IMG/VR virus record: IMGVR_UViG_3300032053_000045
Span: 9,818-73,817 of that record
From: a virus
Reading direction: 5' to 3' (one strand)
DNA length: 64,000 nucleotides
A program made the position numbers and the translations under genes. The notes beneath the pieces were generated by a model that was not told the DNA's origin, ran no database searches, and worked only from the letters and a program-made list of their open reading frames with translations. Below are positions 4,124 through 45,071 of this stretch, piece by piece. Within the stretch, counting starts at the first letter, position 1. The number at the start of each line of letters is the position of its first letter.

Positions 4124-4124
4124 C

Positions 4125-5746: not shown

Positions 5747-5749
5747 GGA

Positions 5750-6751
5750 GTGCACAAAGTGAAGATTGTATTTTTTGATTCTACAGTAATGCATAAATAT
5801 TGGACCGCATCTTTGAATGAGCTAGAAATAAATCACATTTCATTACTCAAGGATAATGAAGATTTTGAAAAAGTTAGAGATACTTTAGAAAAGTTTAATC
5901 CTGATATTCTTATAGGCTCTGTATTAATAAATCCTAAGAAACTTTCTTATTACGAAAAAATTAAGCAATGGGGAAAACAAAATAACAAATGTCTTGCTTG
6001 GATTACAACACAAGATCCTAATTTTAACTTTGCCACTTGTAAACAAGCATTAGGCTATGACTATGTATTTACTTGTGCTAGTGAATGTGTTGAAGATTAT
6101 AAAAAAATAGGATGTGAAAAAGTCGGGATAGTTCCTTTGGGTTATAATCCTCTATGGAGTAAATATTCTAAAGAAGAAAAAATATATGACGTGGTTTTGT
6201 TAGGCAATTATTATCTACCATCTATTGAAAGAGAATGTTATGAAAAGAAAGTAGATAGACATCAGATAAAGCCTGGATACAAAAACATAATTAGGCCACT
6301 CATCAAAAATGGGTATAATGTTAAAATTTGGGGCCACAAAGATAATTGGTTAAAGTCTGGTTTTGTCTCTGAGAATAACTTAATGGATTACATTTTGTAT
6401 ACACGTCATGCAGAAATTTATAACAAGGCCAAGATTTGTATTTCAATAAATTCTAACCAATATAGTCCGACTATGATGAGTTGGAGAGCTTACGAAATAC
6501 CCGCTTGTAAAGCTTTTTGCTTAAGTGCCTGGAGCAAGGCTACAGAAAATGTATTTACCGACGGAAAAGATTTAGTTATTTCAAATTCCCCAGAAGATAC
6601 TTTAAGATTAGTAGATAAATATTTAAATAATGACACTGAAAGAGATAGAATTGCTAATAATGGATATGAAGCTGTCAAAGATAAGCATTCGGTAAAACAA
6701 AGAATCATCGACATGCTGAAATTCATAGACGAAAACGGAGGAAAGCTGTAG
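5750..6751 (+). CDS. CgeB-like glycosyltransferase
   Basis: YDVVLLG, YN.AKI..SIN....R.YEI.AC..F, YL.ND.ER..IA.NG. Confidence 0.85.
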   Translation: MHKVKIVFFDSTVMHKYWTASLNELEINHISLLKDNEDFEKVRDTLEKFNPDILIGSVLINPKKLSYYEKIKQWGKQNNKCLAWITTQDPNFNFATCKQALGYDYVFTCASECVEDYKKIGCEKVGIVPLGYNPLWSKYSKEEKIYDVVLLGNYYLPSIERECYEKKVDRHQIKPGYKNIIRPLIKNGYNVKIWGHKDNWLKSGFVSENNLMDYILYTRHAEIYNKAKICISINSNQYSPTMMSWRAYEIPACKAFCLSAWSKATENVFTDGKDLVISNSPEDTLRLVDKYLNNDTERDRIANNGYEAVKDKHSVKQRIIDMLKFIDENGGKL

Positions 6752-7926
6752 TGAAAGTTTGTGTTATTGGTCTCGGGTATGTTGGTCTTCCTCTATCAGT
6801 TTTATTAGCGGAAATTGGGTGTGAAATTATCGGAGTAGACACCAATAAAGAATTAATTGCTAAAATAAATTCCGGTGTTTGTATGATTCATGAAACTGAA
6901 TTAGAGGAAAGATTAAAAATGGTTATTGCTTTGAATAAACTAAAAGTTCAGGAGTCTCCAGAAAATGCTGACATTTTTGTTTTCTCGGTTCAAACACCTC
7001 TATTAAATGGGAAACCAAATTTAGATTATCTAAACAAAGCATTTAATTCGGTGAAACCTTTCATCAAAAAAGATAACTTACTTATTATCGAATCCACTTG
7101 TCCTGTTGGTACAAGCAGATTTTTATACGATAAATATCTTGATAATAACTCAGATTATCAATTAGCATATTGTCCAGAGAGAATACTTCCGGGGGATATA
7201 ATGAATGAGCTTGTTATCAATGACAGAGTGATTGGAGGTATAGATGAAGTTTCAACAAATAAAGCTATAGATTTTTATAAATTATTTTGCAAAGGGATGT
7301 TATTAGAAACAACAGCTGAAACTGCTGAATTTGTGAAGCTAATTGAAAATACCTATCGTGATGTTAATATTGCTTTCGCCAATGAATTAGAGAAAATAGC
7401 GAAAGAAAAAAATATTAATTGCTTTGAGGCTATAAGTCTAGCTAATAAACATCCACGGGTCAATATCCATTATCCTGGAATTGGAGTCGGCGGACATTGC
7501 ATCCCTAAAGATCCTGTTTTATTAACATATGATTCTGATAGTGCTAAACTTATAAAAACTGCAAGAAAAATAAATAAAAATAAACCTAAAGAAATTGTTT
7601 CGCGAATAAATGAATTTTATAAAATGAATATAGGTTCATTTGAAAAATCAAGAATTGATATAGGTATTCTTGGACTTGCATATAAGCCAAACACAAATGA
7701 TTTTAGAGAATCACCTGCGATAGAGATAATGAATCAGCTTCAAAATATGCAGTGTTTCAATATCAAATTTCATGATCCTTTTATAACAGATTGTAATTCA
7801 ATTGAAGAGATAAAAAAATGTGATATTGTTGTTTTATTAGTTGGTCACAAAGATTATCTTTCTATAAATAAAGAACTGAAAGACACAAAGGGCGTTAATT
7901 TTATAAATTTTGCAGGGGACAAGTAA
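6751..7926 (+). CDS. wecC: Nucleotide-sugar dehydrogenase (UDP-ManNAc dehydrogenase-like)
   Basis: GLGYVGLP, ESTCPVG, CPERILPG, KLIENTYRDVNIAFANEL, PG.GVGGHCIP.DP, GLAYKPN..D.RESP. Confidence 0.88.
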   Translation: MKVCVIGLGYVGLPLSVLLAEIGCEIIGVDTNKELIAKINSGVCMIHETELEERLKMVIALNKLKVQESPENADIFVFSVQTPLLNGKPNLDYLNKAFNSVKPFIKKDNLLIIESTCPVGTSRFLYDKYLDNNSDYQLAYCPERILPGDIMNELVINDRVIGGIDEVSTNKAIDFYKLFCKGMLLETTAETAEFVKLIENTYRDVNIAFANELEKIAKEKNINCFEAISLANKHPRVNIHYPGIGVGGHCIPKDPVLLTYDSDSAKLIKTARKINKNKPKEIVSRINEFYKMNIGSFEKSRIDIGILGLAYKPNTNDFRESPAIEIMNQLQNMQCFNIKFHDPFITDCNSIEEIKKCDIVVLLVGHKDYLSINKELKDTKGVNFINFAGDK

Positions 7927-8603
7927 TGACAATCAATAGATATATTAAATTATCCGATCCAAAAGTTTTAGAATTGAAAGGACTACTGTTAACAGATTGG
8001 TCAAGACCATACGAATATCTTTATATGGAGAGTTTAATAAAAGATCCTAAAGGCATTGCAGTAGATGTAGGAAGTGGGGAACCAGAAAAATATCCCTTTC
8101 CTTTTGTTTTAACAGAAAAATATGAAAGAGTTTATGGAGTGGATGTAAGAAGAATTATTAATCATAAAGTAGTAAAGAAAGTTACTTATAAAATAGCTGA
8201 AGCATGGAAAATGCCATTTGAATCAGGAAAGATAAATGCCGTGTTTTGTATTTCTGTTCTAGAACATTTTAAAGAAAAAGATATTATAGCCAGCGCAGAA
8301 GAATTTGCTAGAGTATCTGCTCCAGGAAGTTATCTTTATTTGTCTTTTATGATTTCTAATGATATTAATAAACCATCTCCTTCTTGTAATTTTTTTGAAC
8401 ATCAAATAAACGGTAAAGGCATATTTTGTGGAGAAAAATATGGTGTTTCACCTCAGTGTAAGATTCAAGTTACTCCTCAAAAAATGCTATCTTATTTTGA
8501 ACCTTATTTTGTTTTAGACGGAGAAACAAATTATGATAAACCAAACGATATTTTAACAAGTGCAAATCGATTGACATTTTGCTGCAGATTAAAAAAGATA
8601 TAA
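7926..8603 (+). CDS. SAM-dependent methyltransferase
   Basis: WSRPYEY, VDVGSG, FCISVLEH. Confidence 0.8.
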   Translation: MTINRYIKLSDPKVLELKGLLLTDWSRPYEYLYMESLIKDPKGIAVDVGSGEPEKYPFPFVLTEKYERVYGVDVRRIINHKVVKKVTYKIAEAWKMPFESGKINAVFCISVLEHFKEKDIIASAEEFARVSAPGSYLYLSFMISNDINKPSPSCNFFEHQINGKGIFCGEKYGVSPQCKIQVTPQKMLSYFEPYFVLDGETNYDKPNDILTSANRLTFCCRLKKI

Positions 8604-9319
8604 TGAGTATAATCGTCGGTTGTCCCATTAGAAATCGTAAATGGACTTTGCTTAAGTATTTGGAAGCTATCTATAATATTGATTATCCCAAAAAAGATCT
8701 GCTAATCTGTTTTCTCGTGAACGATTCCACAGACGGAACTTTAAAATATTTGAATTCATTAGATTTCAGGCAATATAATTTAGCTATAGTAAAAGAAAAA
8801 AATTATAATTTCGAGTCTTGTGAAAGAGAATTAGGAAGAAATACTGATAAATTTTTGCATTTTGCTCAAGTTAGAAATGATTGGATTAGTTTGTTCAAGG
8901 ATATACCAAATGTTACTCATGTATTTTCTATAGATAGTGACGTGTTGGTCCCTAAAAATTCATTGAGAAAGCTACTGAAGAATAATGTTGATATTTGTTC
9001 CGCTTTAGTAATTAACTCAGATAAAAAAAATGGCTACGGAAAAGACATAACAAATATTTTTAATTTCAGTAAAGAAAGAGAATGTTATGAGAATCTAATG
9101 GAATATCCCAAAAAGAGTTTATTTGAGTGTGATGTGACGGGTTCTTGTATTTTATACACAAAAAAGGTAATTGATAGTATTCAATATCAAGCACATCCTT
9201 TGGGCGAGGACTTCGGTTTTTGTTGTGCATCTCATCAGAGAGGATTTAAAGTTTGGGTAGATACAACAATCGAGACGAAACATGTAATGAAAAAAGAAGA
9301 TTTGGGAAGAATTTTTTAG
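8603..9319 (+). CDS. Glycosyltransferase family 2
   Basis: ATG overlaps upstream stop (TAATG); PIRNR, VNDSTD.T, DSD (DxD), GEDFGFC. Confidence 0.85.
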   Translation: MSIIVGCPIRNRKWTLLKYLEAIYNIDYPKKDLLICFLVNDSTDGTLKYLNSLDFRQYNLAIVKEKNYNFESCERELGRNTDKFLHFAQVRNDWISLFKDIPNVTHVFSIDSDVLVPKNSLRKLLKNNVDICSALVINSDKKNGYGKDITNIFNFSKERECYENLMEYPKKSLFECDVTGSCILYTKKVIDSIQYQAHPLGEDFGFCCASHQRGFKVWVDTTIETKHVMKKEDLGRIF

Positions 9320-18330: not shown

Positions 18331-19209
18331 ATGGAAGAAAAAATAGTAACTTGTCAATTGTGTGGTTTTCAAAGCACTCAGTTACAATTTCATGTTAAAA
18401 AATATCATAATCTTACAGGAAAAGAATATAAAGAAAAATTTCCAAATAGTCAATTAGTTTGTAAAAAAGTTAGAATTTTGACGAGTGAATCAAAAAAAGG
18501 TGATAAAAATCCTCATTACGGTAAACATACTTGGAAATATGGTTTAACTAAAGAGACCGATGAGAGAATAAGAATTGCTGGAGAAAAAACCGGTAAAGCA
18601 TTAAAAGGTAAACCTAATCTTGCTTGGAAAGACAAAAAATTAGAAGACATAGTTGGATCTTTTGAAAAAGCTCAAGAAATTAAAAAAGAACAAAGTAGAT
18701 CAAGAAAAGGAAGATATGCCGGAGATAAAAATCCTGCAAAGAAACCTGGAGTTGGAGCAAAAATTAGTAAAGCGAAAATGGGACATGAGGTTACAAAAGA
18801 AACGAGAATAAAATTAAGATTGAGAAGAATCGAACAGCTTACAGTTAACGGGAAAAAATGGGCTTCTTATAATATAAAAGGTTGTGAATATTTTAAATCC
18901 TGGGATGAACAAAATAATACCAAGGGTCAGTATGCAGTATATGGCGGGGGTGAATATTTGATTCCTGGATTATGGTTTTCTCCCGATTATACAAATCACG
19001 ATATAAAAAAATTCAAAGAATGGGACGAACCTCGTCACTATGATAAATTTGGTAATCTTAAACCAAAAGATGTTCAAAGACAGAAAGAAATCCAAGAAGC
19101 CTATCCGGATCATGAATTTGAAAGAATTAAAGTAGATAGGAATGATAACATTCTTGAGATAAAACTATATCCTGCTTTAAATACTTTATTAAAAGGAGAC
19201 AAGGGATAA
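18331..19209 (+). CDS. Free-standing homing endonuclease-like protein (Zn finger, NUMOD3, Vsr/EDxHD-like nuclease)
   Basis: C..C...H...H finger, GLTKETDER; C-terminal GQYAVYGGGEY...DY...EWDEPRH...KD..RQ homologous to 10085. Confidence 0.8.
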   Translation: MEEKIVTCQLCGFQSTQLQFHVKKYHNLTGKEYKEKFPNSQLVCKKVRILTSESKKGDKNPHYGKHTWKYGLTKETDERIRIAGEKTGKALKGKPNLAWKDKKLEDIVGSFEKAQEIKKEQSRSRKGRYAGDKNPAKKPGVGAKISKAKMGHEVTKETRIKLRLRRIEQLTVNGKKWASYNIKGCEYFKSWDEQNNTKGQYAVYGGGEYLIPGLWFSPDYTNHDIKKFKEWDEPRHYDKFGNLKPKDVQRQKEIQEAYPDHEFERIKVDRNDNILEIKLYPALNTLLKGDKG

Positions 19210-23311: not shown

Positions 23312-24829
23312 ATGGTTCTTAATTCTTTTACTAGCAAGGTGTCACAAGGGCTTGAAAAGGCATTTAAAAATCAATATGGCATGAGAGACGTTTCTGACGG
23401 CAATGGAATGATTTTAGAAAAATCAATGAAAGCCTGGGTGCCTGGTTATCGATCTTATGATAAATACGGTCAAGAGAAAACTGGTACTGATTTTCATCTT
23501 ACTCCAGAGACATTGCGAAGAATGTATCAATATAATTGTGTTGTTAGAATGGCGGTTGACGCAATTATTAACGAGGTCACATCAGCAAAATGGGATATCA
23601 TGCCTAAAGAGAAAGATGACAATATTGAAAAGGATAAGGTTAAGCAAGAAGATCAGAAAAAAAGGATCAAAGAAGTAAAAGGTTTCTTTGAGAAGCCTAA
23701 TAAAAATAAAGAAAATTTCAGAACAATTTTAGAAAAAATGATGAGGGATTTATTATTATTGGATGCTGGAGTAATAGTTAAATCTCATACTCCACAAGGA
23801 AGAATAGCAGAAATATATGCAGCAGATGGTGGGACTATAAAAATAGATGCTGACAGACATGGAATGATAAATTGCTTTTGGCAGGTTATTCAACAAGAAG
23901 GACTGAAACCATTAAAATTAGAGTCTAATGAAGTAATTTATCTGATGATGAATCCAAGCACAAATAGTTTATATGGATTATCTCCATTGGAAACTCTACA
24001 TAACATTGTTACAGCTTTTCTTTACGGGGAAACATATAACCTGAAGTATTTCGAGAATAGTTCTACTCCAAGAGGAATTCTTGATCTCGGTCCTGCAATT
24101 ACTGAGGATCAGTTAGACAGATTTAGAACTTACTGGCAGTCGGAAACTATTCAACAACCTCATCGAACATTTGTTGTAGGTGGAGCGTCTGCAGGCTCAA
24201 AGTGGACCGCAATTGCAATGACCCCCAAAGATATGGAGTTTAACAACTATATGAATTGGTTATTGAAAGTTATTCTTGCAGTTTTTGGAGTTAGCCCTTC
24301 AGAAGCAGGATGGACAGAAGATTTGAGAGGGGCTCCCGCAACAGGACAATTACTTCAATCTCAGGCTTTTAAGAATAAATCTATTTATCCTATGATGGAC
24401 AAAATTTCATATTATTTAACAAGAGATATTATTTGGGATGAATTTGGTTATGACGATTTAAAATTCGAATTCATCGAGGAAATCAGTCTCCAAGAAAAAA
24501 TGTTAAAAGGACAATACGACAACATGAGAGTAATGTCAGGGATTATGTCAGTTGACGAAATTAGAAAGGAATCAGGTCTTAGTCCAAAGCCAAAGGAAGA
24601 AGAAGGAATGGGAGGTATGTTTGGTGGAGGAGAAGAAGAGGAAGAGGACTTTGAAGCTTCACCAGAGAAACCAAATGATCCAAATCAAACACTTGATTTA
24701 GTTAAAAAAGAATTAAATAAAAATTCAACAAACACTCAAAAAATGATTGCGAAAGCTTTTAATAAACTTCGTTTTGAGGTACTACGAGGTCTGGTGCATA
24801 GCCAGTTTTTGAATGAGAACAAACAGTAG
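23312..24829 (+). CDS. Portal protein (HK97 family)
   Basis: YGLSPLE, N..YF.N...P.GIL, KDMEF, I..VFGV.P, G.MSVDEIR...GL.P. Confidence 0.93.
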   Translation: MVLNSFTSKVSQGLEKAFKNQYGMRDVSDGNGMILEKSMKAWVPGYRSYDKYGQEKTGTDFHLTPETLRRMYQYNCVVRMAVDAIINEVTSAKWDIMPKEKDDNIEKDKVKQEDQKKRIKEVKGFFEKPNKNKENFRTILEKMMRDLLLLDAGVIVKSHTPQGRIAEIYAADGGTIKIDADRHGMINCFWQVIQQEGLKPLKLESNEVIYLMMNPSTNSLYGLSPLETLHNIVTAFLYGETYNLKYFENSSTPRGILDLGPAITEDQLDRFRTYWQSETIQQPHRTFVVGGASAGSKWTAIAMTPKDMEFNNYMNWLLKVILAVFGVSPSEAGWTEDLRGAPATGQLLQSQAFKNKSIYPMMDKISYYLTRDIIWDEFGYDDLKFEFIEEISLQEKMLKGQYDNMRVMSGIMSVDEIRKESGLSPKPKEEEGMGGMFGGGEEEEEDFEASPEKPNDPNQTLDLVKKELNKNSTNTQKMIAKAFNKLRFEVLRGLVHSQFLNENKQ

Positions 24830-26043: not shown

Positions 26044-26453
26044 TGCAAAGAACTGAAGAGTTAAATTTATTTTTAAGATCGATTTCAAAATCAGATGTTA
26101 GGACGAGACAAAGAAGAGTTAATCGATTTGAAAAAGGGACATTAAAAATGATTGTATTAAGCATTGATGGCGGAATCTTGGCCGTGACTGGCAGACTAAG
26201 GAATGAGCCGGATAGAAAAATTCAAACATTGATATTTAATAAATCGATTAATCCTTATGGAATAAAATCTTGGTCTTTAAGAAAAGCAAAAGATTGGGTG
26301 CATTTGTACAAAAAATCCATAATAAAATCTATTAACCCAGAAAAAATTTCAAATAGAATAATTATTATGAAAGCAATTAAGGCAGCTGAACATCAAATGA
26401 TAAACAAATTACCGAAAATTATAAATAAGGTATTACAAGGAGATGAGCAATGA
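26040..26453 (+). CDS. Hypothetical basic protein (head module)
   Basis: Coupled to both neighbours. Confidence 0.7.
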   Translation: MMQRTEELNLFLRSISKSDVRTRQRRVNRFEKGTLKMIVLSIDGGILAVTGRLRNEPDRKIQTLIFNKSINPYGIKSWSLRKAKDWVHLYKKSIIKSINPEKISNRIIIMKAIKAAEHQMINKLPKIINKVLQGDEQ

Positions 26454-28222
26454 GTAAATTATTGGGAGGGAATTTTTCTCTTGATATTTCCAAGGCCGTG
26501 GAAGGTAAAATCAATCCGGCAAAGAAAAAACGGATAATCGAGGGATACATGACAACTCCCGCTCTCGATCTAGAAAATGAAGTAACAGACAGCAAGGCGT
26601 ATCCTGAAGCTGCCGAAGAATTGAACCAACATGTTCATGATGGATCTCCAATTCCTATTTTTATTGAGCATCGTAGGAAAGAAATTTCTTTACCTGTTGG
26701 GAGAATTATTTCTGCTGAAGCAAAGCCTAATGGGATATGGTTTAAGGGAGAGATCGCAGAAGGTAAAATAGCAGATCCTGTTTGGGAGCTGATTGAGCAA
26801 GGGATGTTAAACGGATGCTCAATGGGTGGAGATGCCTTAGAAACAGTTCCTGATTTTGATCCTGAGAAAAACAAAGAATTCAAAAGAATAAAAAAGATGA
26901 CTATTAGAGAATTATCATTGACAGGGCTACCTGTTAATCCTCAAGCAGTTTTCTCTATGGCAAAATCTTTAAATATCGAAGAAAGGAAGGTGAGATCAAA
27001 ATTGGAAAAATTAGAAAAAGCAATAGAAACAGAATATGATATTAGTACTATAGAGAAAGCTGTTAATGATGGAAAAATTGATGAAGAGAGTATGAAGAGA
27101 ATAAAATCAGCTCTCGATGGATTAGAACAACTTATTGGAATAAAAACTGATGAAACTCCAACGAAAGAAGAGGCTCCCAAAGAAACAGAAGTAGCAGAAA
27201 AACCCACTGAAGATAAAGGTAAGTTAGATCAAATTTTAGAGAAAATAAATATGCTTGTTGAAAATAAGGAAAAACCTGCAGAAAAACCCGAAGAAACTAT
27301 AGAAGAACCAAAAACTACAGAAGCCCCCAAAGAAGAAAAAGAAGAAGGAGGTGAAATGAATATGGCAAAAATGAAAGATATTGATGAAAAAGAAGAAGAT
27401 AAAAAAGAAGCAGAAACACTGAAATGTAAATCTTGTTCGATGGTCTTCGAAAAAAGTGAAGATGAAGATTACGAGGTTAAATTCTGTCCTAAATGTGGTA
27501 AACCATTCGGCGACGAAGAAGTTGAAGGCGAAGTTGATGCTGAAGATAGTGAAGATGGAGAGGAAATCGTTGACGAGGAATCAGTTGACGAAGAGCCGAT
27601 GGATGAAGAGGAAGACATTGACGATGAAGAATTAGATCTCGATGAAGAAGGCGAAGATGACGAGGATGAATTCGAAGATGACGAGGAAGATGATGTTGAA
27701 ATGGTAAAGTTTGTTGATGATGAGGATGAAGATGACGAGTTTGAGGAAGATGAGGAAGATGAGGATGATGAGTCCTTTGAAAAGAATTTAGAAATTCTTC
27801 AGTCAAAACCGTCAAAAGATTCCGGTCAGTCAATTTCAACATTCAAGGGAGATTATATCAAGCCATCAACTGGTAAACGGACTAATCCTGCTGACACCAC
27901 AGAGCACGAACATCCGAAGCCATTCAAGCCGTTAGAGACTGGAGTTTCAGGTGAACAGTTTGCTAACTATGGTAAGGATCGTACAGAGAAATCTATGAGT
28001 TCGTCCAGAATTAAGAGGATGGTTGAGAAAGCTGTTAAGGATTCCGTAGAAGAGACAATTAAATCTTCTATTGAAAAAGCAATTGACGCTTCTAATGTTG
28101 AAAGAAAAGTTCTTGGTCCGATTGAGAAATCTCAAAATGCGACTCCTGATACTATCAGTGATGACAGAGTTTTCGCTCGTGCCCTTTCCCAAGGTCTGTC
28201 TGATCCGATCCCGATGGAGTAG
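26450..28222 (+). CDS. Prohead maturation protease (HK97-type) fused to acidic scaffold-like region
   Basis: IEGYM...D...E, FIEH....PVG, G.W.KG.I, G.S.GG, ELSL...P.NP.A; then coiled coil, Zn ribbon and D/E tract. Confidence 0.9.
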   Translation: MSKLLGGNFSLDISKAVEGKINPAKKKRIIEGYMTTPALDLENEVTDSKAYPEAAEELNQHVHDGSPIPIFIEHRRKEISLPVGRIISAEAKPNGIWFKGEIAEGKIADPVWELIEQGMLNGCSMGGDALETVPDFDPEKNKEFKRIKKMTIRELSLTGLPVNPQAVFSMAKSLNIEERKVRSKLEKLEKAIETEYDISTIEKAVNDGKIDEESMKRIKSALDGLEQLIGIKTDETPTKEEAPKETEVAEKPTEDKGKLDQILEKINMLVENKEKPAEKPEETIEEPKTTEAPKEEKEEGGEMNMAKMKDIDEKEEDKKEAETLKCKSCSMVFEKSEDEDYEVKFCPKCGKPFGDEEVEGEVDAEDSEDGEEIVDEESVDEEPMDEEEDIDDEELDLDEEGEDDEDEFEDDEEDDVEMVKFVDDEDEDDEFEEDEEDEDDESFEKNLEILQSKPSKDSGQSISTFKGDYIKPSTGKRTNPADTTEHEHPKPFKPLETGVSGEQFANYGKDRTEKSMSSSRIKRMVEKAVKDSVEETIKSSIEKAIDASNVERKVLGPIEKSQNATPDTISDDRVFARALSQGLSDPIPME

Positions 28223-28534
28223 AGAACCTGTTAGACTAAACATAAAATGTTTGTCGTTAACGCGACGCTTTTCTTAATTTAAATCAACGTTGATTCATTT
28301 GATTCAAAAATGCGGCTTTTGTCGCGCGGTTGAAAAAGTCCTGAATGTTTGTGATGGTGATCGAAAGAAAACTATCATAAGTGTGTTATAGACACATCAA
28401 CTTCAGGCAGAAAAAAGAATTTTATTGTGGTTAAAAAACCACGGCTTGAAGGGGGTGACTTCCTGTGCTGACCCCCGAAGATGTTAACAACATCAGCGAT
28501 AATATCCTCAGGAAAAAAGGAGGATAGAAATAAA
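28223..28534 (+). promoter_or_regulatory. Structured 5' leader of capsid gene with RBS hairpin
   Basis: Several inverted repeats; tatcctc/gaggata (28503-28526) covers most of the GGAGG. Confidence 0.5.
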
Positions 28535-31500
28535 ATGCGTACATCATTCAATTTTGGGTGATGTTAAACTCTACTATATCGGAGGAAGGTTTAAAAGAAA
28601 CTAATAAATCAATTCCGAGGAAAGACTGGAATACTCCAGAATCCGTAGAGACTATACGTAGAGCTTCCTGAAAAAGGAAGAAGATATAGTCCAAACTGAA
28701 GATATAAATAAAACTTCAGAGGAATTCAGAAATGAAATTCCCGCCTTGAAAAAAGGTTAATAAGTAATAGAATGTGAAAAAGCTTAAATCTGTGTTTTGG
28801 AGCTTTTAAAATTTGGCTATATGCTGGGACCTCCAATACTGGACAATCAGCAGGAAAGACTCTTAAAAAAGAGAATCCTCAGAGACTATACGCCAAACAT
28901 CTCGTACGCATTCCAGGAAAAAGATGATGATATAGTCCGTTCTATATGGTGACATATAGAGGCAAGTAGAAATATTTGCCCGCCTTGTAAAAGGTAATAA
29001 AAGTAACACGAAGTGAATACAGTTGCCGGAACGGGTGGAGATACCTTGATCCCGCGTTTGGCGGATTTTTAATTTGGTCCGCTTTAAATTGAGCTAAATC
29101 GGTGAACATCTTTTTCTAAAGACAATACCGAGGAAAGACTGGAATACTCCAGAATCCGTAACGACTATACGCTCAACATTGGAATAAAATCCATAAAGAT
29201 ATAGTCTAAACTCCAACTATAGATAAAATTGGAGAGGAATTCAGAAATGAAATTCCCGCCTAAAAAACTTTAGGTTATTAAAGTAATAGAATGCAAATCA
29301 TTCCGTTTTTAAAATAAGCGGAATTCAAATTGGGCTAATTCGGTAAAAACCTGAAAGAGAAAATTTTTCAGGCAATACCGAGCTAAATTCAAGAACAATC
29401 TTGATAAAAGTGTAGAGACTATAAACCCGATGCTAATTCCTTTAATTAGTAATGATATAGTCCAAACTGCAAATATAAAAATTAAATTGCAGAGATAAGA
29501 AGAAATTCTTATCCGCCTCTTAAACAAGAGGTTATAAAAGTAATAAAATGTTATCCGGCAGAAATCGTGTTTAAATATGCGACTTTGAGTAGAGATGCTC
29601 ATCGAAAATCTCGTAAATTGCTGGAAAATCTTAACAGTCTACTAAACTACAAAGTAATTTCTTTAAAATGAAATAAACTTGAATGTTTAAAAATTAGTAG
29701 AATTAGACAATCAGCAGGGAAGCTCGAAAGAGAACCTTCAGAGACTAGAGACGAGACATCTGAAAAGATGATGATATAGTCCGAACTTCAAAGAGATTTG
29801 AAGAGTTCTGTTTTAAAAAAACAGAGAGTAACACAATTGATATGCGCCAATTCCTCCCAACATTCGTATTAACTTGCGACTTTGAGTAGAAATACTCATT
29901 GAAAAATTCCGTAAATTGCTGGAAACCCCGAGTATATTTTGGTACAGAAAAATTAAATATTCTGTAAAAATCCAAAATTGCGGACAATCAGCAGCCAAGC
30001 TTCCTCTAAGGAAGAAGGTTCAGAGACTAAAGACGGAACTTCTGAAAAGAAGATGATATAGTCCGATCTTTATAGCGATATAAAGAGTTGATAGAGAGAA
30101 AATATTTTTCTATCAGAATAACAGAAATGAATGCCGACCCAAGTTTATAGATTTCCTAAGTTAAGTGCTGGTTGATTTTATTGCAGCCACTTCAAGAAGA
30201 AATTCTTGTCGAATAAGCAACTATATCGGGGGAACTCTTCAAGAGAATAAATCTGAAGACAATCCCGACGGAAGAGAATACCAGAAATGGTGGAAAAAAC
30301 TCCCGCTAGAGACTACACGTTGCAACCTTGAATAAAGGTTATGATATAGTCCAAACTGCATAGTGATATGCAGAGGAATTCAGAAATGAAATTCCCGCCT
30401 AAAAAACTTTAGGTTATTAAGTAATAGATTGAGCAATGTTTATTATGTTGGTGAGGCGATTGCGGCTCCAGAATCGGCAATGAGTACCGGAACCGTGGAA
30501 TTGACTGCGAAGAAATTAATGGTTGATTTTAATGCAGCCACTTTTGAGAGAAATCTCAATTGAAAAATCTTACTATATCGGTGAAACTCTCGAAAACTAT
30601 GATATAATATAACTATGGGGCTAAGAAGAGCTTTATAACCTCTTCGAAGGTGCCTAAATCACCAAGCCCCTTCTTTACCTATTTAGGAGGTAATAAATGA
30701 ATAAATTTAGAAAATGTTTGTATTGTGATAATTTAGTTAAAGTAAATAAACCTCATATTGCCAGAATTCTTTGTCAAGAATGTAAAGATAAGAAAAACAT
30801 TCCTATTTTTAAAGATATTCAGGGGATAGAAAATGTTAATTATGTGATTTGCAAAATTTGCGGATATAAAAGTACGCAATTATTTTGGCATATTAAAAAA
30901 CATCACAAATTAACAGGTAAACAATATAGATCTTTATTCCCTGGAGAAAAATTAATGATTTCTTGGAATTTAGGATTAACATCTGAAACAGACATTAGAG
31001 TTAAGAAAAATGCTGAAAATTCTGGTAAGGTTAGAAAAGGAAAGAAAAATCAAAAATCCAGTGAAACTAAGAAGAAAAAATTTAAATTGGGTTTATTAAA
31101 AATTTGGAATAAAGGCTTAACAATAGAAGATCAAAGAGTTAAAAATTATACAAAAAATCGTGAAAAGACAATAAAAGAAAAATTTGCTTCTGGTGAATTA
31201 GTTGTTTGGAATAAAGGACAGACAAAATATTCACACCCAAGTATAGCTAAGTCAATAATAACAAGACGAGAAACGATGGCAAAAATTTAGCTTTAGATCC
31301 TCATTATTATGATCTTGACTTTGGTGAACCAAGTAATTTAGATTTAGCTCTATATGCCGAGTTAGAAAAACATAACATAAAATATATTCCACAATATTAT
31401 TTCGTTTGTTCTGAATTAGAAACAATAATAGATGCGTTTATAGAACCAAATATTTGTGTTTATGTAGATGGTACATATTGGCATAGTCCTGGTCATATGA

Positions 31501-34500
31501 GAAGTAAAGATAGTTATCAAAAACTTATTCTAAGAAATAAAGGATTCATTCCTTTAAGATTTTCTGAAGAATATTTTTATTCAAACAAACATTTAGTTAT
31601 AGAAGAAATTAAAAAAGTTATTCGAGACAATACCGAGGCAACCTGAGAAATCAGAGAGTCCGTAGAGACTACACGTAAGAATCCTATCTAATCACATAGG
31701 AAAAAGATATAGTCCGAACTCTATAGTGATATAGAGAGATAAATAGAAATATTTACCCGCCTCGAAAGAGGTTATAAAGTAACAAATTTGTGCCCTCGCC
31801 ATCAGTGCCGAGTTACAAGAGGATAAATTGTTGTCCTCTAAAAATTGTATTAAAACGGTGAAACGCTTCGAGAATATATGTTATAATTAATAGGGGCTAA
31901 GATTGACCTCATGAATCAATCGACGGTTGCCCTAACAACCAAGCCCTTCTTTACCTTAGGGGGTATGAAATGAAGAATGATAAGATTCAATGTCCAATTT
32001 GTAAAAATTGGTATCATAATTTGACAGGAAAACATTTGCAAAAACATGGTTATAATTCAGTAAAACAGTTTTTATTAGATTATCCTAATTCTAAAACAAT
32101 ATCTAATAGAGTATCAAAAATTCTTTCAAAACATTGGCATAAGAAATTAAAACCAATGCGTAAAGAAATAGGTAGAAAATCTAGTGAGACTAAAAAAGAA
32201 AGATTTAAACTAGGTTTATTGGAACCTTGGAATAAAGGATTAACTAAAGAGACTGATAAAAGAATTAAGAAAAATGGTGAAAGTGTTTCTAATACATGGA
32301 AAAGAAAATCAAAAAGGGAAAAGAAAAAATATGGAAAAGTCGTCAGCAAAAGATTAAAAGGTAGAAGTTGGAAAGATCTTTGGGGTGAAGAACAAGCAGA
32401 AATAAGAAGTGAAAAACAAAGTAAGAGGTTGAAAGGAAAAGGTAGTCCTTTTTATAAAGATGGAAGATGTTCAGATAAATTAAATTATATTAATGATTAC
32501 GGACCAAATTGGCCAAAGATAAGAAAGGCTATTTATAAAAGAGATAATTGGACTTGTCAAGAATGTTTGGCAAAAGATAGAAAAGTACTTTGTCATCACA
32601 TAATAGATTATTTTGATTTTCCGGTAGAAAAAAGAAAAGAATTTGCTCACCATGGATTGAATTTAATTACATTATGTTTTTCTTGTCATTCAAAATTAAT
32701 TAACAAAAAGATTCTTAAAGTCAATACCGTGAGGTATTTAGAGATTACAAAATCTAAGTATCTTGTAACGACTACGTATTCAAAGGCAACTTTGAGTGCT
32801 ACGTACAACATGCTAAAAAGCATGATGATATAGTCTAAACTGTAGACATAATTCATAAACTGCAGAGATAAGAAGAAATTCTTATTCGCTTATTTCAGAA
32901 TTAGGTTTTCTAAATAAGTTATTAAAGTAATAAATTGGCAATTTTGCCGATTGTGCCAGTTGTCAGAGATGACATGGCCAAAGCGTTCGCGCTGGCAGAA
33001 GAAGATGTGTTCGAATTGATGAGCACCTTTTGAGAGAAATCTCAATCGAAAATTCTACTATATCGGTGGAACTCTTTGTAATCTATTTGAAATCTATGAT
33101 ATAATATAACTATGGGGCTAAGTTTGAATTAATTACTCAAACGAGGTTGCCTGAACAACCAAGCCCCGTTACTTTTCAGGAGGTAAATATATGGTTTTTC
33201 CAAAAGGAAAAAAGTTTCCAAAATCTGGTATTGAAAAATTAAAAAAGACTTTCAAAAAACGTAAAGAATTAAAATTACACATAGGAACGAAGAAGATCAA
33301 TGAAAAAAAGATTAATTATTGTTTAAATTGTGACAAAGAAATAATCGTTTCTGTAAATGGGTGTAATAAGGATAAGAAATTTTGTTCTTCAAGCTGCGCT
33401 TCTTCTTACAATAATAAAATTAGATGGAGCGATAATGAAAAGAAACAAAATTGGATAAGAAAAATCAATGAGACAAGAAAAAATAATAATAGTTATCATA
33501 CTGGAAGTTTAAAAGCAATTCAAACCAGAAGACAAAATAATAATTTATATAGTTGGAACACAGGTTTAACAAAAGAAACTGATGAACGTTTGAAAAAAGC
33601 TAGTGAAAAACAAAGTAAAGATAGGAAAGGAGTTTCTTGGGTAGATCGCTTTGGAGATGAAACAGCAAAAGATATGAAAAGACAAGCTAGACAGAGATTG
33701 ACAGGTATGATTATCGACGGAAAATTAGAATTAAATTATGGTTTAGAATGGATAAAAATCCGAAAAGAAATTTTAATTAGAGATAATTACACTTGTTGTG
33801 TTTGTAATGTTGAAAAAGCTGAAAAAGTTCATCACATTGTTCCATATAGAATTATTAAAAAACATGAGAAATTTTTATTAGTATCAGTTTGTAAAAAATG
33901 TCATTTAAAAATAGAACCAAAGAATATACCGACGGAAGAGATTACCTTTGAATCGTATATAAATTATTATATAAATAAAGGTGGAAAACTCCCGCTAGAG
34001 ACTACACGTAGAACCCCTATAACGGGTGATGATATAGTCCGAACCTCAGATATAAAATAAAACTGAGGAGTTATCTAGAAATAAGATAACCTCTTAAGAA
34101 ATTAAGAAGTAACAAAATTGTTATCAATGGTAACACGGCTGGTGCTTTTGCGGCTAACGACCCTAAGTTTGCATGGATATGAAAAATATTTAGTGCCTTA
34201 CAAGAGAAATCTTGTATAGAAAATTCAGAGAATTGCTGGAAGATCCTAAGAGCTTGTTTAACTACAAAGTAGATTCTGTAAAATGAATCAAGCTTGATAG
34301 TTTGAAAATAAACAAGATTGGATAATCAGCAGGGGAGCCCGAAAGGGAACCTTCAGAGACTATGTACTGAACTTCCTGAAAAAGGAAGATGATATAGTCC
34401 GTACTTTAGGGAAACTTAAAGAGTTCTGTTTAATAAAACAGAGAATAACACAATAGTCAATGGTATTCGGATTTCAGGAACTGGTACAGATGTCAATGCT

Positions 34501-36314
34501 AGCTCGGCTGCACTTACGCTCGCGAACATCTCGACTTCAATTCAAAATTTGGGCGTCTACGGACGCGACAAATCAGAATTGCTGCTCGTCGTTTCGTTGA
34601 GAGAAGAAAGCAGACTGCGTCAGCTACTTGGTATCAATCTGGCGGTCAACGCACTTGGCCTTACCGGTACGGCACTTCCGGGAGAGATCGGTAAAGTCTG
34701 GGGGGTTCCTGTAGTTGCTACAAACCTCTTACCTACGACTCTTGCCCCGGGAACCTTGTCTGTGGCCCTGATGATCAACAGAAATTGTGCAGTTATTGGT
34801 GGAAAAATTCGCCAATGTAAAAACTCGTAAATTCGGTGGAACTCCTGCAAAGGACAATACCGAGCCAAGCTTAATAGAGAAACTCTCGAAATAGAATTTT
34901 TTTATTATGAAGGTGTAACGACTATACACGAGTCTTCTTTAGAAAAAAGAATGAAGATATAGTCTGAGCTGAATAGTAATATTCAGATGTAGACAGAAAT
35001 GATCTACATTTGGAAGATAAATTCTTCCAAGATAACAGTCTGGATAGAAGGATCTTCACAATCAAGTCCTCAAATACATCTGGGGTCTTATAAAAAACTT
35101 CGAGAATTGCTGGAAGCCTTTAGAGCTTGTTTAACTACAAAGTAACTTCTCAAATGAAGTAAACTTGAATGTTCTAAAAATAAACAAGATTAGGTAATCA
35201 GCAGCCGAGCCCGTGAGGGAAGGTTCAGAGACTATGCACGAAGCATTTGTTAAAAATAGATGATGATATAGTCCGATCCTTGTTGAAAAACAAGCAAATT
35301 TTATTATGGGTCTAAGTTGAGAATAATTAACTCCATGTATAAAATTTTGGAATTAAAAATATGCAGATGAGATTTTGATTAGGTCCGATCAGTTAAAACA
35401 TAATAGCTGCTTCATAAAGAAATTTATGAATGGGACTTGGCTAATTCGGTGAAACTCCAGAAGTGGAAAACACCGAGCTAAATTGAGAAGAGAGTTTCTC
35501 TCTCATAAATGTGTAACGACTATATACCAGGCATCCTAAAAGGATGAAGAGATAGTCTGATCTACAAATATAACCAAATGAAATTGTAGAGTTGGTAATT
35601 CTTATACTTCGTCAATATAAGACAATCCAACACTCAGAAATGAGTTAACAAAATGTACTTGTCGTCGCGTCCGAAAGGATTATGAAAAATTAGTCCGTTT
35701 AGATAGAAATATCTAAATAAAATAATCTCGAAAATTGCTGGAAGGTCATGAGAGTCAAACAAGCTACAAAATGAATCCTTAAATGGATTGAGTTCGAATG
35801 CTTTAAAAATTGTTTGAATTTGATAATCAGCAGCCGAGCCCGAAAGGGAAGGTTCAACGACTACGCCCGAGACATCTCTAAATGAGATGATGATATAGTC
35901 TGATCTTATGGGAAACCTTAAGAGTTGACAGGAAATGTTTCTTGTCAGAATAACACAAATGTGGTTTCGCTATGCAATACGCCGACGCCTCGGTTCGGAT
36001 TATTAATATAAATAGTTCCATTTAAGAGTAATCTTAAATTGCAAACTCAGAGAATTGCTGGAAGGTCCTTAGAGCTTGTTTAACTACAACATAATCTATG
36101 TTATAATAGATAAGTGTGAATGTTTGAAAATAAACAAGATTGGATAATCAGCAGCCGAGCCCGAAAGGGAAGGTTCAGAGACTATGTACTGAGTTTCCTC
36201 GAGAGAGGAAAATGATATAGTCCGATCTCATAGGAAACTATGAGAGTTGTAGAGAGAATATTTAAAAATATTTCATCTGCAGAATAACACAAATGTATTA
36301 ATATCGCACCTTAG
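28535..36314 (+). CDS. Major capsid protein (HK97 fold, 305 aa), split by 16 group I introns
   Basis: join(28535-28548,28775-28785,29014-29066,29294-29306,29551-29568,29840-29867,30130-30172,30432-30523,31791-31824,32938-33010,34121-34174,34457-34800,35043-35070,35364-35393,35656-35680,35962-36000,36296-36314) = 918 nt with no internal stop. AAGGAGG RBS; lies directly after the prohead protease; HK97 motifs GG..IP, VGE, V.L..KKL, IS.EL.ED, ING, GVPVV, ER.GF. Confidence 0.93.
28549..28774 (+). ncRNA. Group I intron 1 (226 nt)
   Basis: P1 acatcatt/gggtgatgt with U.G; P3 ctctac/gtagag; P7 gagact/gatatagtcc; ends aatG. Confidence 0.9.
28786..29013 (+). ncRNA. Group I intron 2 (228 nt)
   Basis: P1 aaaagctt/gagctttt; P3 tttggc/gccaaa; P4 tgctgg/tcagca; P7 gagact/tagtcc. 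Confidence 0.9.
29067..29293 (+). ncRNA. Group I intron 3 (227 nt)
   Basis: P1 gcggat/gtccgc; P3 ttgagc/gctcaa; P7 acgact/tagtct. Confidence 0.9.
29307..29550 (+). ncRNA. Group I intron 4 (244 nt)
   Basis: P1 attccgt/gcggaat; P3 ttggg/cccga; P7 gagact/tagtcc. Confidence 0.9.
29569..29839 (+). ncRNA. Group I intron 5 (271 nt)
   Basis: P1 tcgt/gcga; P3 tctcgt/acgaga; P/Q aattgctgg/aatcagcag; P7 gagact/tagtcc. Confidence 0.9.
29868..30129 (+). ncRNA. Group I intron 6 (262 nt)
   Basis: P1 tcgt/gcga; P3 ttccgt/acggaa; P7 gagact/tagtcc. Confidence 0.9.
30173..30431 (+). ncRNA. Group I intron 7 (259 nt)
   Basis: P1 tggt/gcca; P3 gcaac/gttgc; P7 gagact/tagtcc. Confidence 0.9.
30600..30690 (+). 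promoter_or_regulatory. Intron-internal extended -10 promoter plus RBS-masking pseudoknot
   Basis: TGATATAAT 30600-08; ggggct/agcccc; ggtg-cctaaat-cacc loop pairs with atttagg in atttaggagg. Confidence 0.75.
30697..31646 (+). pseudogene. Intron-encoded endonuclease (Zn finger, NUMOD3, Vsr/DUF559-like), split by a -1 frameshift near 31285
   Basis: ORF 30697-31290 has WN.GLT repeats; the -1 frame 31287-31646 reads ...DAFIEPNICVYVDGTYWH...KD.YQ..IL..KG...LRFSE. Confidence 0.75.
31879..31964 (+). promoter_or_regulatory. Intron-internal extended -10 promoter plus RBS-masking pseudoknot
   Basis: TGTTATAAT 31879-87; ggggct/agccct; ggttg-ccctaa-caacc loop pairs with ttaggg in ttagggggt. Confidence 0.75.
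31970..32833 (+). CDS. Intron-encoded HNH homing endonuclease
   Basis: C..C..H..H finger, WNKGLTKETD, RDNWTCQEC...HHI...NLITLC..CH. Confidence 0.88.
   Translation: MKNDKIQCPICKNWYHNLTGKHLQKHGYNSVKQFLLDYPNSKTISNRVSKILSKHWHKKLKPMRKEIGRKSSETKKERFKLGLLEPWNKGLTKETDKRIKKNGESVSNTWKRKSKREKKKYGKVVSKRLKGRSWKDLWGEEQAEIRSEKQSKRLKGKGSPFYKDGRCSDKLNYINDYGPNWPKIRKAIYKRDNWTCQECLAKDRKVLCHHIIDYFDFPVEKRKEFAHHGLNLITLCFSCHSKLINKKILKVNTVRYLEITKSKYLVTTTYSKATLSATYNMLKSMMI
33097..33183 (+). promoter_or_regulatory. Intron-internal extended -10 promoter plus RBS-masking pseudoknot
   Basis: TGATATAAT 33097-105; ggggct/agcccc; ggttg-cctgaa-caacc loop pairs with ttcagg in ttcaggagg. Confidence 0.75.
33191..34060 (+). CDS. 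Intron-encoded HNH homing endonuclease
   Basis: C..C...FCS..C, WNTGLTKETD, RDNYTC..C....VHHI.P...LVSVC..CH. Confidence 0.88.
   Translation: MVFPKGKKFPKSGIEKLKKTFKKRKELKLHIGTKKINEKKINYCLNCDKEIIVSVNGCNKDKKFCSSSCASSYNNKIRWSDNEKKQNWIRKINETRKNNNSYHTGSLKAIQTRRQNNNLYSWNTGLTKETDERLKKASEKQSKDRKGVSWVDRFGDETAKDMKRQARQRLTGMIIDGKLELNYGLEWIKIRKEILIRDNYTCCVCNVEKAEKVHHIVPYRIIKKHEKFLLVSVCKKCHLKIEPKNIPTEEITFESYINYYINKGGKLPLETTRRTPITGDDIVRTSDIK
34175..34456 (+). ncRNA. Group I intron 11 (282 nt)
   Basis: P1 gcat/gtgc; P3 ttcag/ctgaa; P/Q aattgctgg/aatcagcag; P7 gagact/tagtcc. Confidence 0.9.
34801..35042 (+). ncRNA. Group I intron 12 (242 nt)
   Basis: P1 attggt/gccaat; P3 actcgt/acgagt; P7 acgact/tagtct. Confidence 0.9.
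35071..35363 (+). ncRNA. Group I intron 13 (293 nt)
   Basis: P1 aagtcct/gggtctt; P3 cttcg/cgaag; P7 gagact/tagtcc; divergent 3' (P9) region. Confidence 0.85.
35394..35655 (+). ncRNA. Group I intron 14 (262 nt)
   Basis: P1 cagt/gctg; P3 cttgg/ccagg; P7 acgact/tagtct. Confidence 0.88.
35681..35961 (+). ncRNA. Group I intron 15 (281 nt)
   Basis: P1 ggat/gtcc; P3 tctcg/cgaga; P7 acgact/tagtct. Confidence 0.9.
36001..36295 (+). ncRNA. Group I intron 16 (295 nt)
   Basis: P1 ggat/gttcc; P3 actcag/ctgagt; P7 gagact/tagtcc. Confidence 0.9.
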
Positions 36315-43673: not shown

Positions 43674-45071
43674 ATGGTTACTTTTCAAGGACGCAGTTAT
43701 AAGCAACCAGGGTCGTACTCATACACCGACCCCACAGCATTGGTCGGAGTTGGTTTAGGAACAGGTGGAGTAGTTGCTATCATAGGTACTGCAACTGGTG
43801 GACGGCCAGGTCAAGTTACTTTATTTTCGGATCCAGTTTCTGCAAAAAATGCATATAGGGGTGGAAATTTAATAAACGCCGCAAATTATGCTTGGGCAGC
43901 TGGAGCAAATTTAATTTATTTAACACGCCCAGGAAATCCTCTTCAAGCATCATTGTTACTTAATGCTACCGGCCCTGCAGCTTGTATCACTGCCACTTCA
44001 ATTGATTATGGTTCTTGGTGTAATAGTATTCAAACAAAAGTAGAAAATGCTACATCTGGTCCAACGAATTGCAAAATTACGGTTCAATATTATAATACAT
44101 CAACTGGACAAACAACGACTGAAGTTGCTGATGAAATGGCTACTGGCACTGCTATTATAGCGTATTGGGCGGCTAATTATCCTCAAGGATTAGTTGCATT
44201 TACAGGAGGAGTAGCTGTTGCGAATCGTCCATTGAATATTGTATTTACTCCATTAGCGAGTGGAACCGATGATTTAACCCCGTTAGCGGCAGCATGGCAA
44301 ACGGCAATTGATTTTTATAATAAATATGAAGTTAATCTTATGCATCCTGCCGGTTGTGAGGACGCTGTGACTCAAGCCTATTTGTTAGCACATTGTATTA
44401 CAAATTCAAATAATAGAAAAGAAAGAATTTGTATTGTCGGAGGTCCGGCTTCTGAAACAGCAACTCAATCAACGACAAGAGCCGTTAATCTTAATAGTAG
44501 CAGAGCCGTATTTGTTGCCCCGGGAACTGACAGCGAATCCGGAACAATGACAGCAGCCAGAATTACTGGTATGCTTGCTGGAGTTGATGTTGCTACAGCG
44601 TTAACACATCAAACAATTCAAGCGTCTACTGTTGCTGTAAAATATACAGACACGGAAAAAGATAGTTTAATAACACTTGGTGTTTGTGCAATTGAAGAAG
44701 TTCCACAGGGAAAAAGAGTTTTAAGATCAATTACTACAGCCCAAGATTTATCTACGACTCAAGAAAATCCGTTCAAAGAAATTTCAATTCAAAGAATTGC
44801 CGATTATGTTAATTACAATATGAGAACCAATTTAGAAACTGCATTTGTCGGGAAAAAGGGAGTCACGGGAATTGAGGCCTCAATAAATGCTTCAACGACT
44901 TCTATTTTGGTAAGACTAAGAGAAGCAGAAATTATTCAAGGATTTAGAAATGTTAATGTTAAAAGAGATACAAGTAATCCACAAATAGTTTATGTGAGTT
45001 ATGAAGTTGCCCCTATCAGCCCGATCAATTTCATTCTAATTACTACCCGGCTAGTTCCCATAATTGCATAA
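43674..45071 (+). CDS. Contractile tail sheath protein
   Basis: PGSYS, VAIIG.A.GG, RI.DY....R, FVGK, V.PI.PI.FI.I. Confidence 0.92.
   Translation: MVTFQGRSYKQPGSYSYTDPTALVGVGLGTGGVVAIIGTATGGRPGQVTLFSDPVSAKNAYRGGNLINAANYAWAAGANLIYLTRPGNPLQASLLLNATGPAACITATSIDYGSWCNSIQTKVENATSGPTNCKITVQYYNTSTGQTTTEVADEMATGTAIIAYWAANYPQGLVAFTGGVAVANRPLNIVFTPLASGTDDLTPLAAAWQTAIDFYNKYEVNLMHPAGCEDAVTQAYLLAHCITNSNNRKERICIVGGPASETATQSTTRAVNLNSSRAVFVAPGTDSESGTMTAARITGMLAGVDVATALTHQTIQASTVAVKYTDTEKDSLITLGVCAIEEVPQGKRVLRSITTAQDLSTTQENPFKEISIQRIADYVNYNMRTNLETAFVGKKGVTGIEASINASTTSILVRLREAEIIQGFRNVNVKRDTSNPQIVYVSYEVAPISPINFILITTRLVPIIA

Follow-up and report, generated by a model that had tools for sequence, protein, structure and literature searches.

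A putative phage major capsid gene divided into 17 exons by 16 predicted group I introns

The plus strand between positions 28535 and 36314 of the window, i.e. the 64,000-nt stretch analysed here (bases 9818–73817 of the 73.8-kb linear IMG/VR virus record IMGVR_UViG_3300032053_000045), very probably holds a functional HK97-fold capsid gene of an uncultured contractile-tailed phage that is interrupted by 16 group I introns and would be expressed through their splicing. The record is a single metagenome assembly with a CheckV completeness of 59%. The gene had been proposed from the letters of the window alone (the original prediction), as 17 exons that form one 918-nt frame with consistent junctions in a locus that is 88% intron. 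When the one large open frame of the region, now exon 12, was used as a protein-database query, it retrieved uninterrupted 306-aa proteins with the Pfam domain Phage_capsid. Independently of the predicted coordinates, the exons were placed by tblastn of an intact homolog, P0001, against the window, and the junctions were then set by the group I rules that the exon ends in U and the intron in G. The search returned collinear plus-strand pieces over residues 10–304 of P0001 and reproduced the proposed architecture. The 17 exons of 14, 11, 53, 13, 18, 28, 43, 92, 34, 73, 54, 344, 28, 30, 25, 39 and 19 nt join to 918 nt (305 codons and a stop) with no earlier stop in frame, and the introns make up 6862 of the 7780 nt (88.2%), one intron per 57 coding nt. 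All 16 intron-preceding exons end in T, and all 16 introns end in G.

The identity of the spliced product as an HK97-fold major capsid protein is supported by comparison with an uninterrupted ortholog, P0002. Residues 1–305 of the spliced product align with residues 1–306 of P0002 at 87% identity with one gap (83% identity to P0001), and the Pfam, PHROG and structure tests were run on this full-length protein. P0002 matches Phage_capsid (PF05065) with an E-value of 7.5e-30 over profile positions 3–278 of 280. Because this match spans nearly the whole profile, all 17 exons would be needed to build one capsid domain; exon 12 alone gave no Pfam match. P0002 also matches PHROG major head protein families and, by sequence, solved capsid proteins including that of HK97. 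An AlphaFold2 model of P0002 computed with 51 diverse homologs has a predicted local distance difference test score (pLDDT) of 83.1, and its top Foldseek matches in the PDB are the capsids of DT57C, T5 and HK97 (E 2e-17 to 5e-16, template modelling score 0.60–0.68); it supersedes an unusable model from a 15-sequence alignment (pLDDT 46). Profile and structure checks are thus both positive for the HK97 capsid identity that had been claimed. Compared with the ortholog in the relative L001, the proportion of nonsynonymous differences (pN) is 0.126 and that of synonymous differences (pS) 0.81, the latter being saturated. The phage collection contained only distant capsid homologs, with 24–33% identity.

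The 16 intervals are confirmed, at the level of sequence, as group I introns, for which self-splicing is predicted. In a search with the Rfam model RF00028, ten of them scored at or above the gathering score of 50 bits (58–83 bits), and a second search with a laxer E-value threshold added four matches at 35–49 bits with E ≤ 4.5e-6 (introns I1, I3, I4 and I8). All 14 matches lie on the plus strand within 28538–36244, and neither the remainder of the window nor that of the full 73.8-kb record gave a match to RF00028. I9 and I10 are without an RF00028 match; each holds an open reading frame (ORF) of about 870 nt, yet their core is the common one and their sequences are similar to those of sibling introns. 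On the plus strand, the core signature GACTA-N25-55-ATAGTC was counted exactly 16 times, always inside the gene, with 0.58 occurrences expected by chance. The P7 pairs read GAGACT/TAGTCC in 11 introns and ACGACT/TAGTCT in five, without a single mixed pair, and the invariant P7 and J8/7 bases are kept in 16 of 16 cores. The 16 tandem cores of the original prediction, their P7 covariation and their absence from the rest of the window are all borne out, the first by the covariance model (14 of 16) and the motif, the second exactly and the third by both searches. The 35–62 nt between the two P7 strands are taken up by P3' and P8, where introns of class IA2, the usual one in phages, have an extra P7.1 and P7.2; judged by spacing, this would speak against IA2. 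At 35667–35726, across exon 15 and the start of I15, a match to the lysM-Prevotella RNA reached 35.4 bits against a cut-off of 66.6 and was taken as chance.

By blastn the introns form two families; the greatest likeness between any of them is about 81% over 195 nt. Family A comprises I1, I3, I4 and I7–I10, with I12 and I14 as weak members, and family B comprises I5, I6, I11, I13, I15 and I16, with I2 as a weak member. RNAalifold recovers P2 to P9 in each family. At least one double pair-preserving change is found in 38 of 55 predicted pairs of family B and in 30 of 35 of family A, with compensatory changes in P3, P4, P6, P7 and P8 and a G-C to A-U covariation in P7 that holds for all 16 introns. 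Because of these compensatory changes, the copies appear to have diverged while their fold was kept.

All exons and introns lie on the plus strand; 13 of the 16 introns are compact (226–295 nt) and ORF-less, and I8–I10 carry ORFs. Exon 1 (14 nt, 28535–28548) contains the ATG start, preceded by GGAGG about 11 nt upstream, ends in T and forms an 8-bp P1 helix with the guide of I1 (226 nt, family A, 28549–28774; Rfam 45.1 bits, E 4e-9; P7 GAGACT/TAGTCC; terminal G). Micro-exon 2 (11 nt, 28775–28785) leads to I2 (228 nt, 28786–29013; 81.6 bits), and exon 3 (53 nt, 29014–29066; P0001 residues 10–26 in tblastn) to I3 (227 nt, family A with I1 as nearest sibling, 29067–29293; 39 bits, E 3e-7; P7 ACGACT/TAGTCT). 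Alignment of P0001 by tblastn likewise places exons 4–9, 11 and 13–16. Micro-exon 4 (13 nt, 29294–29306) is followed by I4 (244 nt, family A, 29307–29550; 49.1 bits, E 3e-10). Exon 5 (18 nt, 29551–29568), I5 (271 nt, 29569–29839; 82.6 bits and the family structure prediction), exon 6 (28 nt, 29840–29867) and I6 (262 nt, 29868–30129; 83.3 bits) come next; for both of these family B introns the Rfam alignment covers model positions 1–253 and sets a U·G pair at the placed exon 5/I5 and exon 6/I6 junctions. Exon 7 (43 nt, 30130–30172) precedes I7 (259 nt, family A, 30173–30431; 58.1 bits). The three long introns follow, namely I8 (1267 nt, family A, 30524–31790; 35 bits, 3' half) with an ORF of 197 aa at 30697–31290, I9 (1113 nt, 31825–32937) with an HNH endonuclease ORF of 287 aa at 31970–32833, and I10 (1110 nt, 33011–34120) with an HNH endonuclease ORF of 289 aa at 33191–34060. 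They are bordered by exon 8 (92 nt, 30432–30523), exon 9 (34 nt, 31791–31824), exon 10 (73 nt, 32938–33010; 24 of 24 residues identical to P0001) and exon 11 (54 nt, 34121–34174). I11 (282 nt, family B, nearest sibling I16, 34175–34456; 68.6 bits) separates exon 11 from exon 12, the only large exon (344 nt, 34457–34800; 84% identical to P0001 residues 146–260). The remaining part of the gene consists of I12 (242 nt, 34801–35042; 73.1 bits), exon 13 (28 nt, 35043–35070), I13 (293 nt, family B, 35071–35363; 74 bits), exon 14 (30 nt, 35364–35393), I14 (262 nt, 35394–35655; 62.5 bits), exon 15 (25 nt, 35656–35680), I15 (281 nt, family B, 35681–35961; 82.1 bits), exon 16 (39 nt, 35962–36000), I16 (295 nt, family B, 36001–36295; 76.8 bits) and exon 17 (19 nt including the TAG stop, 36296–36314), which encodes a C-terminus, IINIAP, identical to that of P0002.

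Exon 17 and I16 start with the same 9 nt, TATTAATAT (36296–36304 and 36001–36009). Recombination between these direct repeats would delete I16 precisely, and the repeat would let the same guide bases form either a P1 extension or P10. In-frame stops are met 0–64 nt into the introns (mean about 21 nt), and since these positions are roughly those of chance in AT-rich sequence, no adaptive reading is drawn from them.

Every intron contains, 9–19 nt from its 5' end, a guide that pairs with the last 4–8 exon bases and places a U·G pair at the cleavage site. The P1 with U·G and the terminal G that had been ascribed to each intron are found in 16 of 16. P1 has a mean length of 5.3 bp as compared to 1.6 bp at random U-ending sites, a comparison biased by guide positions that were chosen to maximise P1. 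With these guide positions fixed, P10 has a mean length of 3.2 bp as compared to 0.65 ± 0.27 bp, and none of 2000 random sets reaches 3.2 bp. In 11 of the 14 Rfam matches the model starts 9–13 nt upstream of the placed 5' splice site. At the I10 site, sequence covariation gives the most direct indication that splicing is under selection, as exon and guide read GTGT/GCAC in the window and GCGT/GCGC in the relative L009. Guides are common to siblings (GCGA in I5 and I6, GCCA in I7 and I8, and alike also in I15 and I16), and the 5' splice sites of I3, I9, I15 and I16 alike follow GGAT. The micro-exons have barely the length required for the upstream P10 and the downstream P1, with 5 + 8 bp and a 2-nt overlap in exon 2 and 5 + 7 bp in exon 4.

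These pairings also bear on whether the locus could be a decaying gene of a defective or dead-end phage, in which at least one intron is splicing-dead and no capsid protein is made from this copy. An I8 endonuclease gene that looks broken, four cores below the Rfam cut-off and the heavy requirement of 16 serial splicing events would agree with decay. Yet the 17 exons join in frame without stops and the amino acids are strongly conserved (low pN at saturated pS), the invariant P7 and J8/7 bases persist in every core, the helices are retained through compensatory changes, and P1 and P10 are intact at every junction. We consider decay extremely unlikely and proceed with a gene that is predicted to be spliced.

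As for the route from this gene to its product, we propose that one long RNA, a pre-mRNA of about 7.8 kb, would be transcribed across the gene. A terminator-like hairpin is present after the protease gene (28252–28267), and no plus-strand terminator-like hairpin was found inside the capsid gene. The pre-mRNA would be processed by 16 independent ribozymes, each folding and splicing as it emerges, most likely co-transcriptionally and from 5' to 3', with an efficiency that is presumed. In each case the guide near the 5' end of the intron would pair with the last 4–8 exon bases (P1, with the U·G at the cleavage site) and next with the first bases of the following exon (P10), and guanosine-initiated transesterification would excise the intron, with its terminal G at the 3' cut. 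The 305-residue capsid protein would be obtained from the fully spliced 918-nt message alone, and translation of unspliced RNA would stop after 8 codons. The TGA that ends this unspliced reading (28559–28561; peptide of 8 residues) lies inside the guide of I1 (28557–28564). Because of this position, a ribosome on unspliced RNA would unwind the P1 of I1, and translation and I1 splicing probably compete. Competition between translation and splicing is known for phage T4 introns.

Several points weigh against such a functional, fully spliced gene. The architecture comes from one metagenome contig, splicing itself is read from sequence, and an exact search of viral contigs for the I1–exon 2–I2 junction found no independent copy. 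Four introns fall below the Rfam cut-off and two have no match. Several P1 helices are limited to 4 bp, and the message contains their targets repeatedly (TGGT 10 times, GGAT 6 times), which makes mis-splicing possible. With guides common to siblings and with such repeated target words, there would be a real risk of exon skipping like that reported for Twort orf142 and SIOphi. By simple arithmetic, an efficiency of 90% per intron would leave only about 18% complete transcripts. Finally, the record is incomplete (59%), so an intact capsid gene could sit in the missing part. Such an intact gene elsewhere, envisaged in the original prediction as another source of the virion protein, was not found in the 73.8-kb record at this estimated completeness. 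The gene order portal, orf330, orf137, S78 protease, split capsid gene and head-completion genes is identical in the intron-free relative L001, and this conserved synteny argues that the split gene is the capsid copy of the head module.

The dependence on one contig raises the question of an assembly composite, i.e. that alleles with fewer introns were merged, the assembler taking the intron branch each time, and that no genome carries all 16. The single metagenome contig, the variation of relatives between zero and three introns at partly different sites and the lack of confirmation of the junctions by a second contig (exact I1–exon 2–I2 search) would be compatible with a composite. However, 16 of the 17 exons measure 11–92 nt and are thus shorter than ordinary short reads (the read length being assumed), so reads would link neighbouring introns. 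A break would be possible at exon 12 (344 nt) alone, between I1–I11 and I12–I16, and a collapse of repeats is unlikely for introns with at most about 81% likeness over 195 nt. Altogether a composite appears very unlikely, and we keep to a single gene with all 16 introns.

Relatives of the gene show a much lower intron load, given here in coding-sequence (CDS) coordinates of the window's capsid gene. The complete capsid genes of L001, L002, L004 and L008 have no intron, L005/L006 have one at position 245, L007 has two at about 71 and 329, L009 has three at 306, 379 and 636, and L014 has at least one just before residue 209. In L009 the orthologs of I9 and I10 occupy exactly the same CDS positions (306 and 379). 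The capsid family thereby has at least 20 distinct insertion sites, of which the window copy occupies 16. RF00028 gave no match on the relatives at either the gathering or the E-value threshold, though blastn and motif scans show introns there; because ORF-bearing introns escape the model, this miss is no evidence of intron absence. Family-B-like introns also occur outside or downstream of the capsid gene (L010:1474–1680; L014:2290–2560 and 930–1157) and thus appear not to be restricted to this gene in the lineage. At least 119 loci in viral contigs bear the P7 signature, with at most 4 copies per locus among the matches listed. Scans of metagenomes and genome collections yielded few further relatives and no host clue.

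Capsid protein fragments in the database hint at more such genes. P0024 begins with residue 103, the last residue of P0036 is 103, and P0159 covers 47–111. The ends of these fragments and of P0008 and P0009, at residues 47, 103 and 111, coincide with intron sites of the window or of L007, and introns have probably truncated ORF calls in further relatives. Like P0008, the homologs P0005, P0006, P0010 and P0012, among others, are truncated in the database.

The ORFs of the three long introns are informative for the origin of the load. The I9 ORF matches Pfam HNH with 25.0 bits (cut-off 21.4) and a PHROG HNH family at 5e-13, and the I10 ORF matches a PHROG HNH family at 5e-12. I9 and I10 are absent from L001, L002, L004 and L008 and present at the same sites in L009, and from their HNH ORFs and the shared L009 sites they look like ordinary homing introns. 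No nuclease domain was found in frame in the I8 ORF, which gave a weak ROS_MUCR-like zinc-finger match and is 38% identical to the N-terminal part of a free-standing 292-aa ORF (18331–19209). A DUF559-like piece follows the I8 ORF at 31497–31646, and because it is out of frame, the endonuclease gene of I8 has probably decayed, the ORF probably being what is left of a copy of a mobile nuclease cassette. Within the conserved leader, just 5' of the I8, I9 and I10 ORFs, lie extended −10 promoter-like sites (TG-n-TATAAT, 10/12) at 30581–30608, 31858–31887 and 33076–33105.

Among about 1.2 Mb of loci, nine introns have a sibling in the same gene as their closest relative, whereas I2, I6, I12 and I15 are related at least as closely to an external intron, a mixed pattern that we read as import together with local spread to sites compatible with the guide. 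The number of intron pairs with the same 4-nt target word is 10, as compared to 2.1 ± 1.5 expected (P = 0.0006). These recurring exon words would fit guide-matched ectopic spread as well as a filter that keeps only spliceable insertions, between which the data cannot separate. A bias of insertion sites to conserved protein segments was not significant (0.84 vs 0.79, P = 0.10). Since I8–I10 carry endonuclease genes, the sites of I9 and I10 are shared with a relative and the compact copies sit at recurring exon words, the load is best read as selfish accumulation. A further-reaching idea, unlikely as a whole but with some small chance of being right, is that the 13 compact introns multiplied within the gene by guide-directed, endonuclease-independent integration (reverse-splicing-like or other), that the array is near a physical limit, because the micro-exons just hold the upstream P10 and the downstream P1, and that it may be retained as a late timer or a barrier to co-infection. 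No reverse transcriptase is present among the annotated ORFs of the phage, and a Pfam scan of 20 upstream ORFs yielded no reverse transcriptase, maturase or RNA-repair gene; for the head and tail ORFs the scan was mainly with PHROGs, and it left out several downstream ORFs.

Retention of the array could also reflect an outright benefit, for example if splicing postponed late capsid expression or if capsid alleles marked by an endonuclease kept out co-infecting relatives. The literature discusses intron endonucleases in the competition of co-infecting phages and introns as switches (PMC11878797), transcription of 7.8 kb instead of 0.9 kb would by our estimate add minutes at typical bacterial elongation rates, and three endonuclease genes with promoter-like sites of their own lie inside the gene. 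However, close relatives do well with zero introns, 13 of the 16 introns encode nothing, and nothing in the sequence separates benefit from tolerance. We regard a benefit as distinctly unlikely and selfish accumulation as the better description.

Compared to known systems, the locus does not represent a new kind of element but an extreme arrangement of mostly compact, ORF-less introns. Its intron count is unmatched in the phage papers found, in agreement with the original prediction for phage genes, but not in biology overall. The highest count among these phage genes is that of the major capsid protein gene of the crAss-like Zeta-group phage cMAG OLRF01000054, which is split into five fragments by four intervening segments (Yutin et al. 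2021, PMC7886860). It, too, is a capsid gene that belongs to an intron-rich lineage, is split by several group I introns and escapes ORF callers, but it has four intervening segments as opposed to 16 introns in one 918-nt gene of a record otherwise without introns; 14 introns and 3 inteins in a whole crAss-like genome were called an unprecedented density (PMC7886860). The 16 introns are thus about four times the number in any reported phage gene.

The overall record is set by the mitochondrial cox1 of Agaricus bisporus, with 18 group I introns and one group II intron in a 1587-nt CDS and exons down to 3 nt (Ferandon et al. 2010, PMC2987802). Both are single conserved protein genes that serve as reservoirs of many group I introns and contain micro-exons. 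The fungal gene is about 95% intron, each of its introns is longer than 1 kb, and intact endonuclease genes are present in 15 of 18 (PMC2987802), whereas 13 of the 16 introns here are compact and ORF-less. It is, moreover, an organelle gene with one intron per 84 nt of CDS as compared to one per 57 here, i.e. the density of the capsid gene is the higher one.

Another late structural gene with tandem group I introns separated by short exons is orf142 of Staphylococcus phage Twort, for which three introns and exon skipping were documented (Landthaler and Shub 1999, as related in PMC11878797). As far as that account goes, Twort differs in having three introns and not 16, and in their class IA2, as opposed to the 35–62 nt between P7 strands seen here. 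Exon skipping has also been reported for SIOphi, and up to 3 group I introns per gene occur in Bastillevirinae (PMC11878797). The jumbo gut (Jug) phages resemble the present case in having many small ORF-less group I introns in essential genes, with about 18.5 introns of about 206 nt mean length per genome of 360–400 kb, 1–2 of them in terL (2–3 pieces), and about half of those tested were validated by metatranscriptome reads (PMC12880540). Their introns are spread over the whole genome, whereas here a similar number lies in one gene of a 74-kb record.

Phage T4 has one group I intron each in td, nrdB and nrdD, genes of nucleotide metabolism, with the endonucleases I-TevI to I-TevIII. I8–I10 are similar to these introns in that an endonuclease gene forms a loop outside the ribozyme and that, at a fixed site, the intron is present in some relatives and absent from others. 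They differ in that the endonucleases are of HNH type and the ORFs run into the P7–P8 core.

The surroundings of the gene identify its source. The window has a GC content of about 33% and carries nearly all genes on the plus strand. Because it encodes a portal (23312–24829), an S78 prohead protease with a long C-terminal extension (26450–28222), head-completion proteins and a tail sheath (43674–45071), the source is assigned from sequence to an uncultured contractile-tailed phage. The protease ORF has 590 aa with the S78 domain in the first ~230 residues; its extension, partly conserved among relatives, might be a fused scaffold. The N-terminal part of this ORF is also matched by one PHROG with the label major head protein. 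A block at 3092–9319 encodes glycosyltransferases, S-adenosylmethionine (SAM) methyltransferases, a polysaccharide pyruvyl transferase and a UDP-glucose/GDP-mannose dehydrogenase, sugar-modification functions that are an unusual cargo for a phage.

For annotation, the locus means that ORF callers see no capsid gene where one is predicted. Because such genes are missed and database fragments begin and end at junction positions, the number of intron-split capsid genes in metagenomic phage catalogues is probably underestimated. The locus would further provide a natural test system for the co-transcriptional folding of adjacent ribozymes and for splice-site choice among siblings that share a 4-nt guide, and it could reveal exon skipping and an endonuclease-independent arrival of group I introns at new sites. 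If the gene works as read here, the most abundant structural protein of the phage depends on 16 ribozymes that must each act correctly on one transcript, with exons down to 11 nt, which would set a new upper bound on the intron load that a phage gene tolerates.

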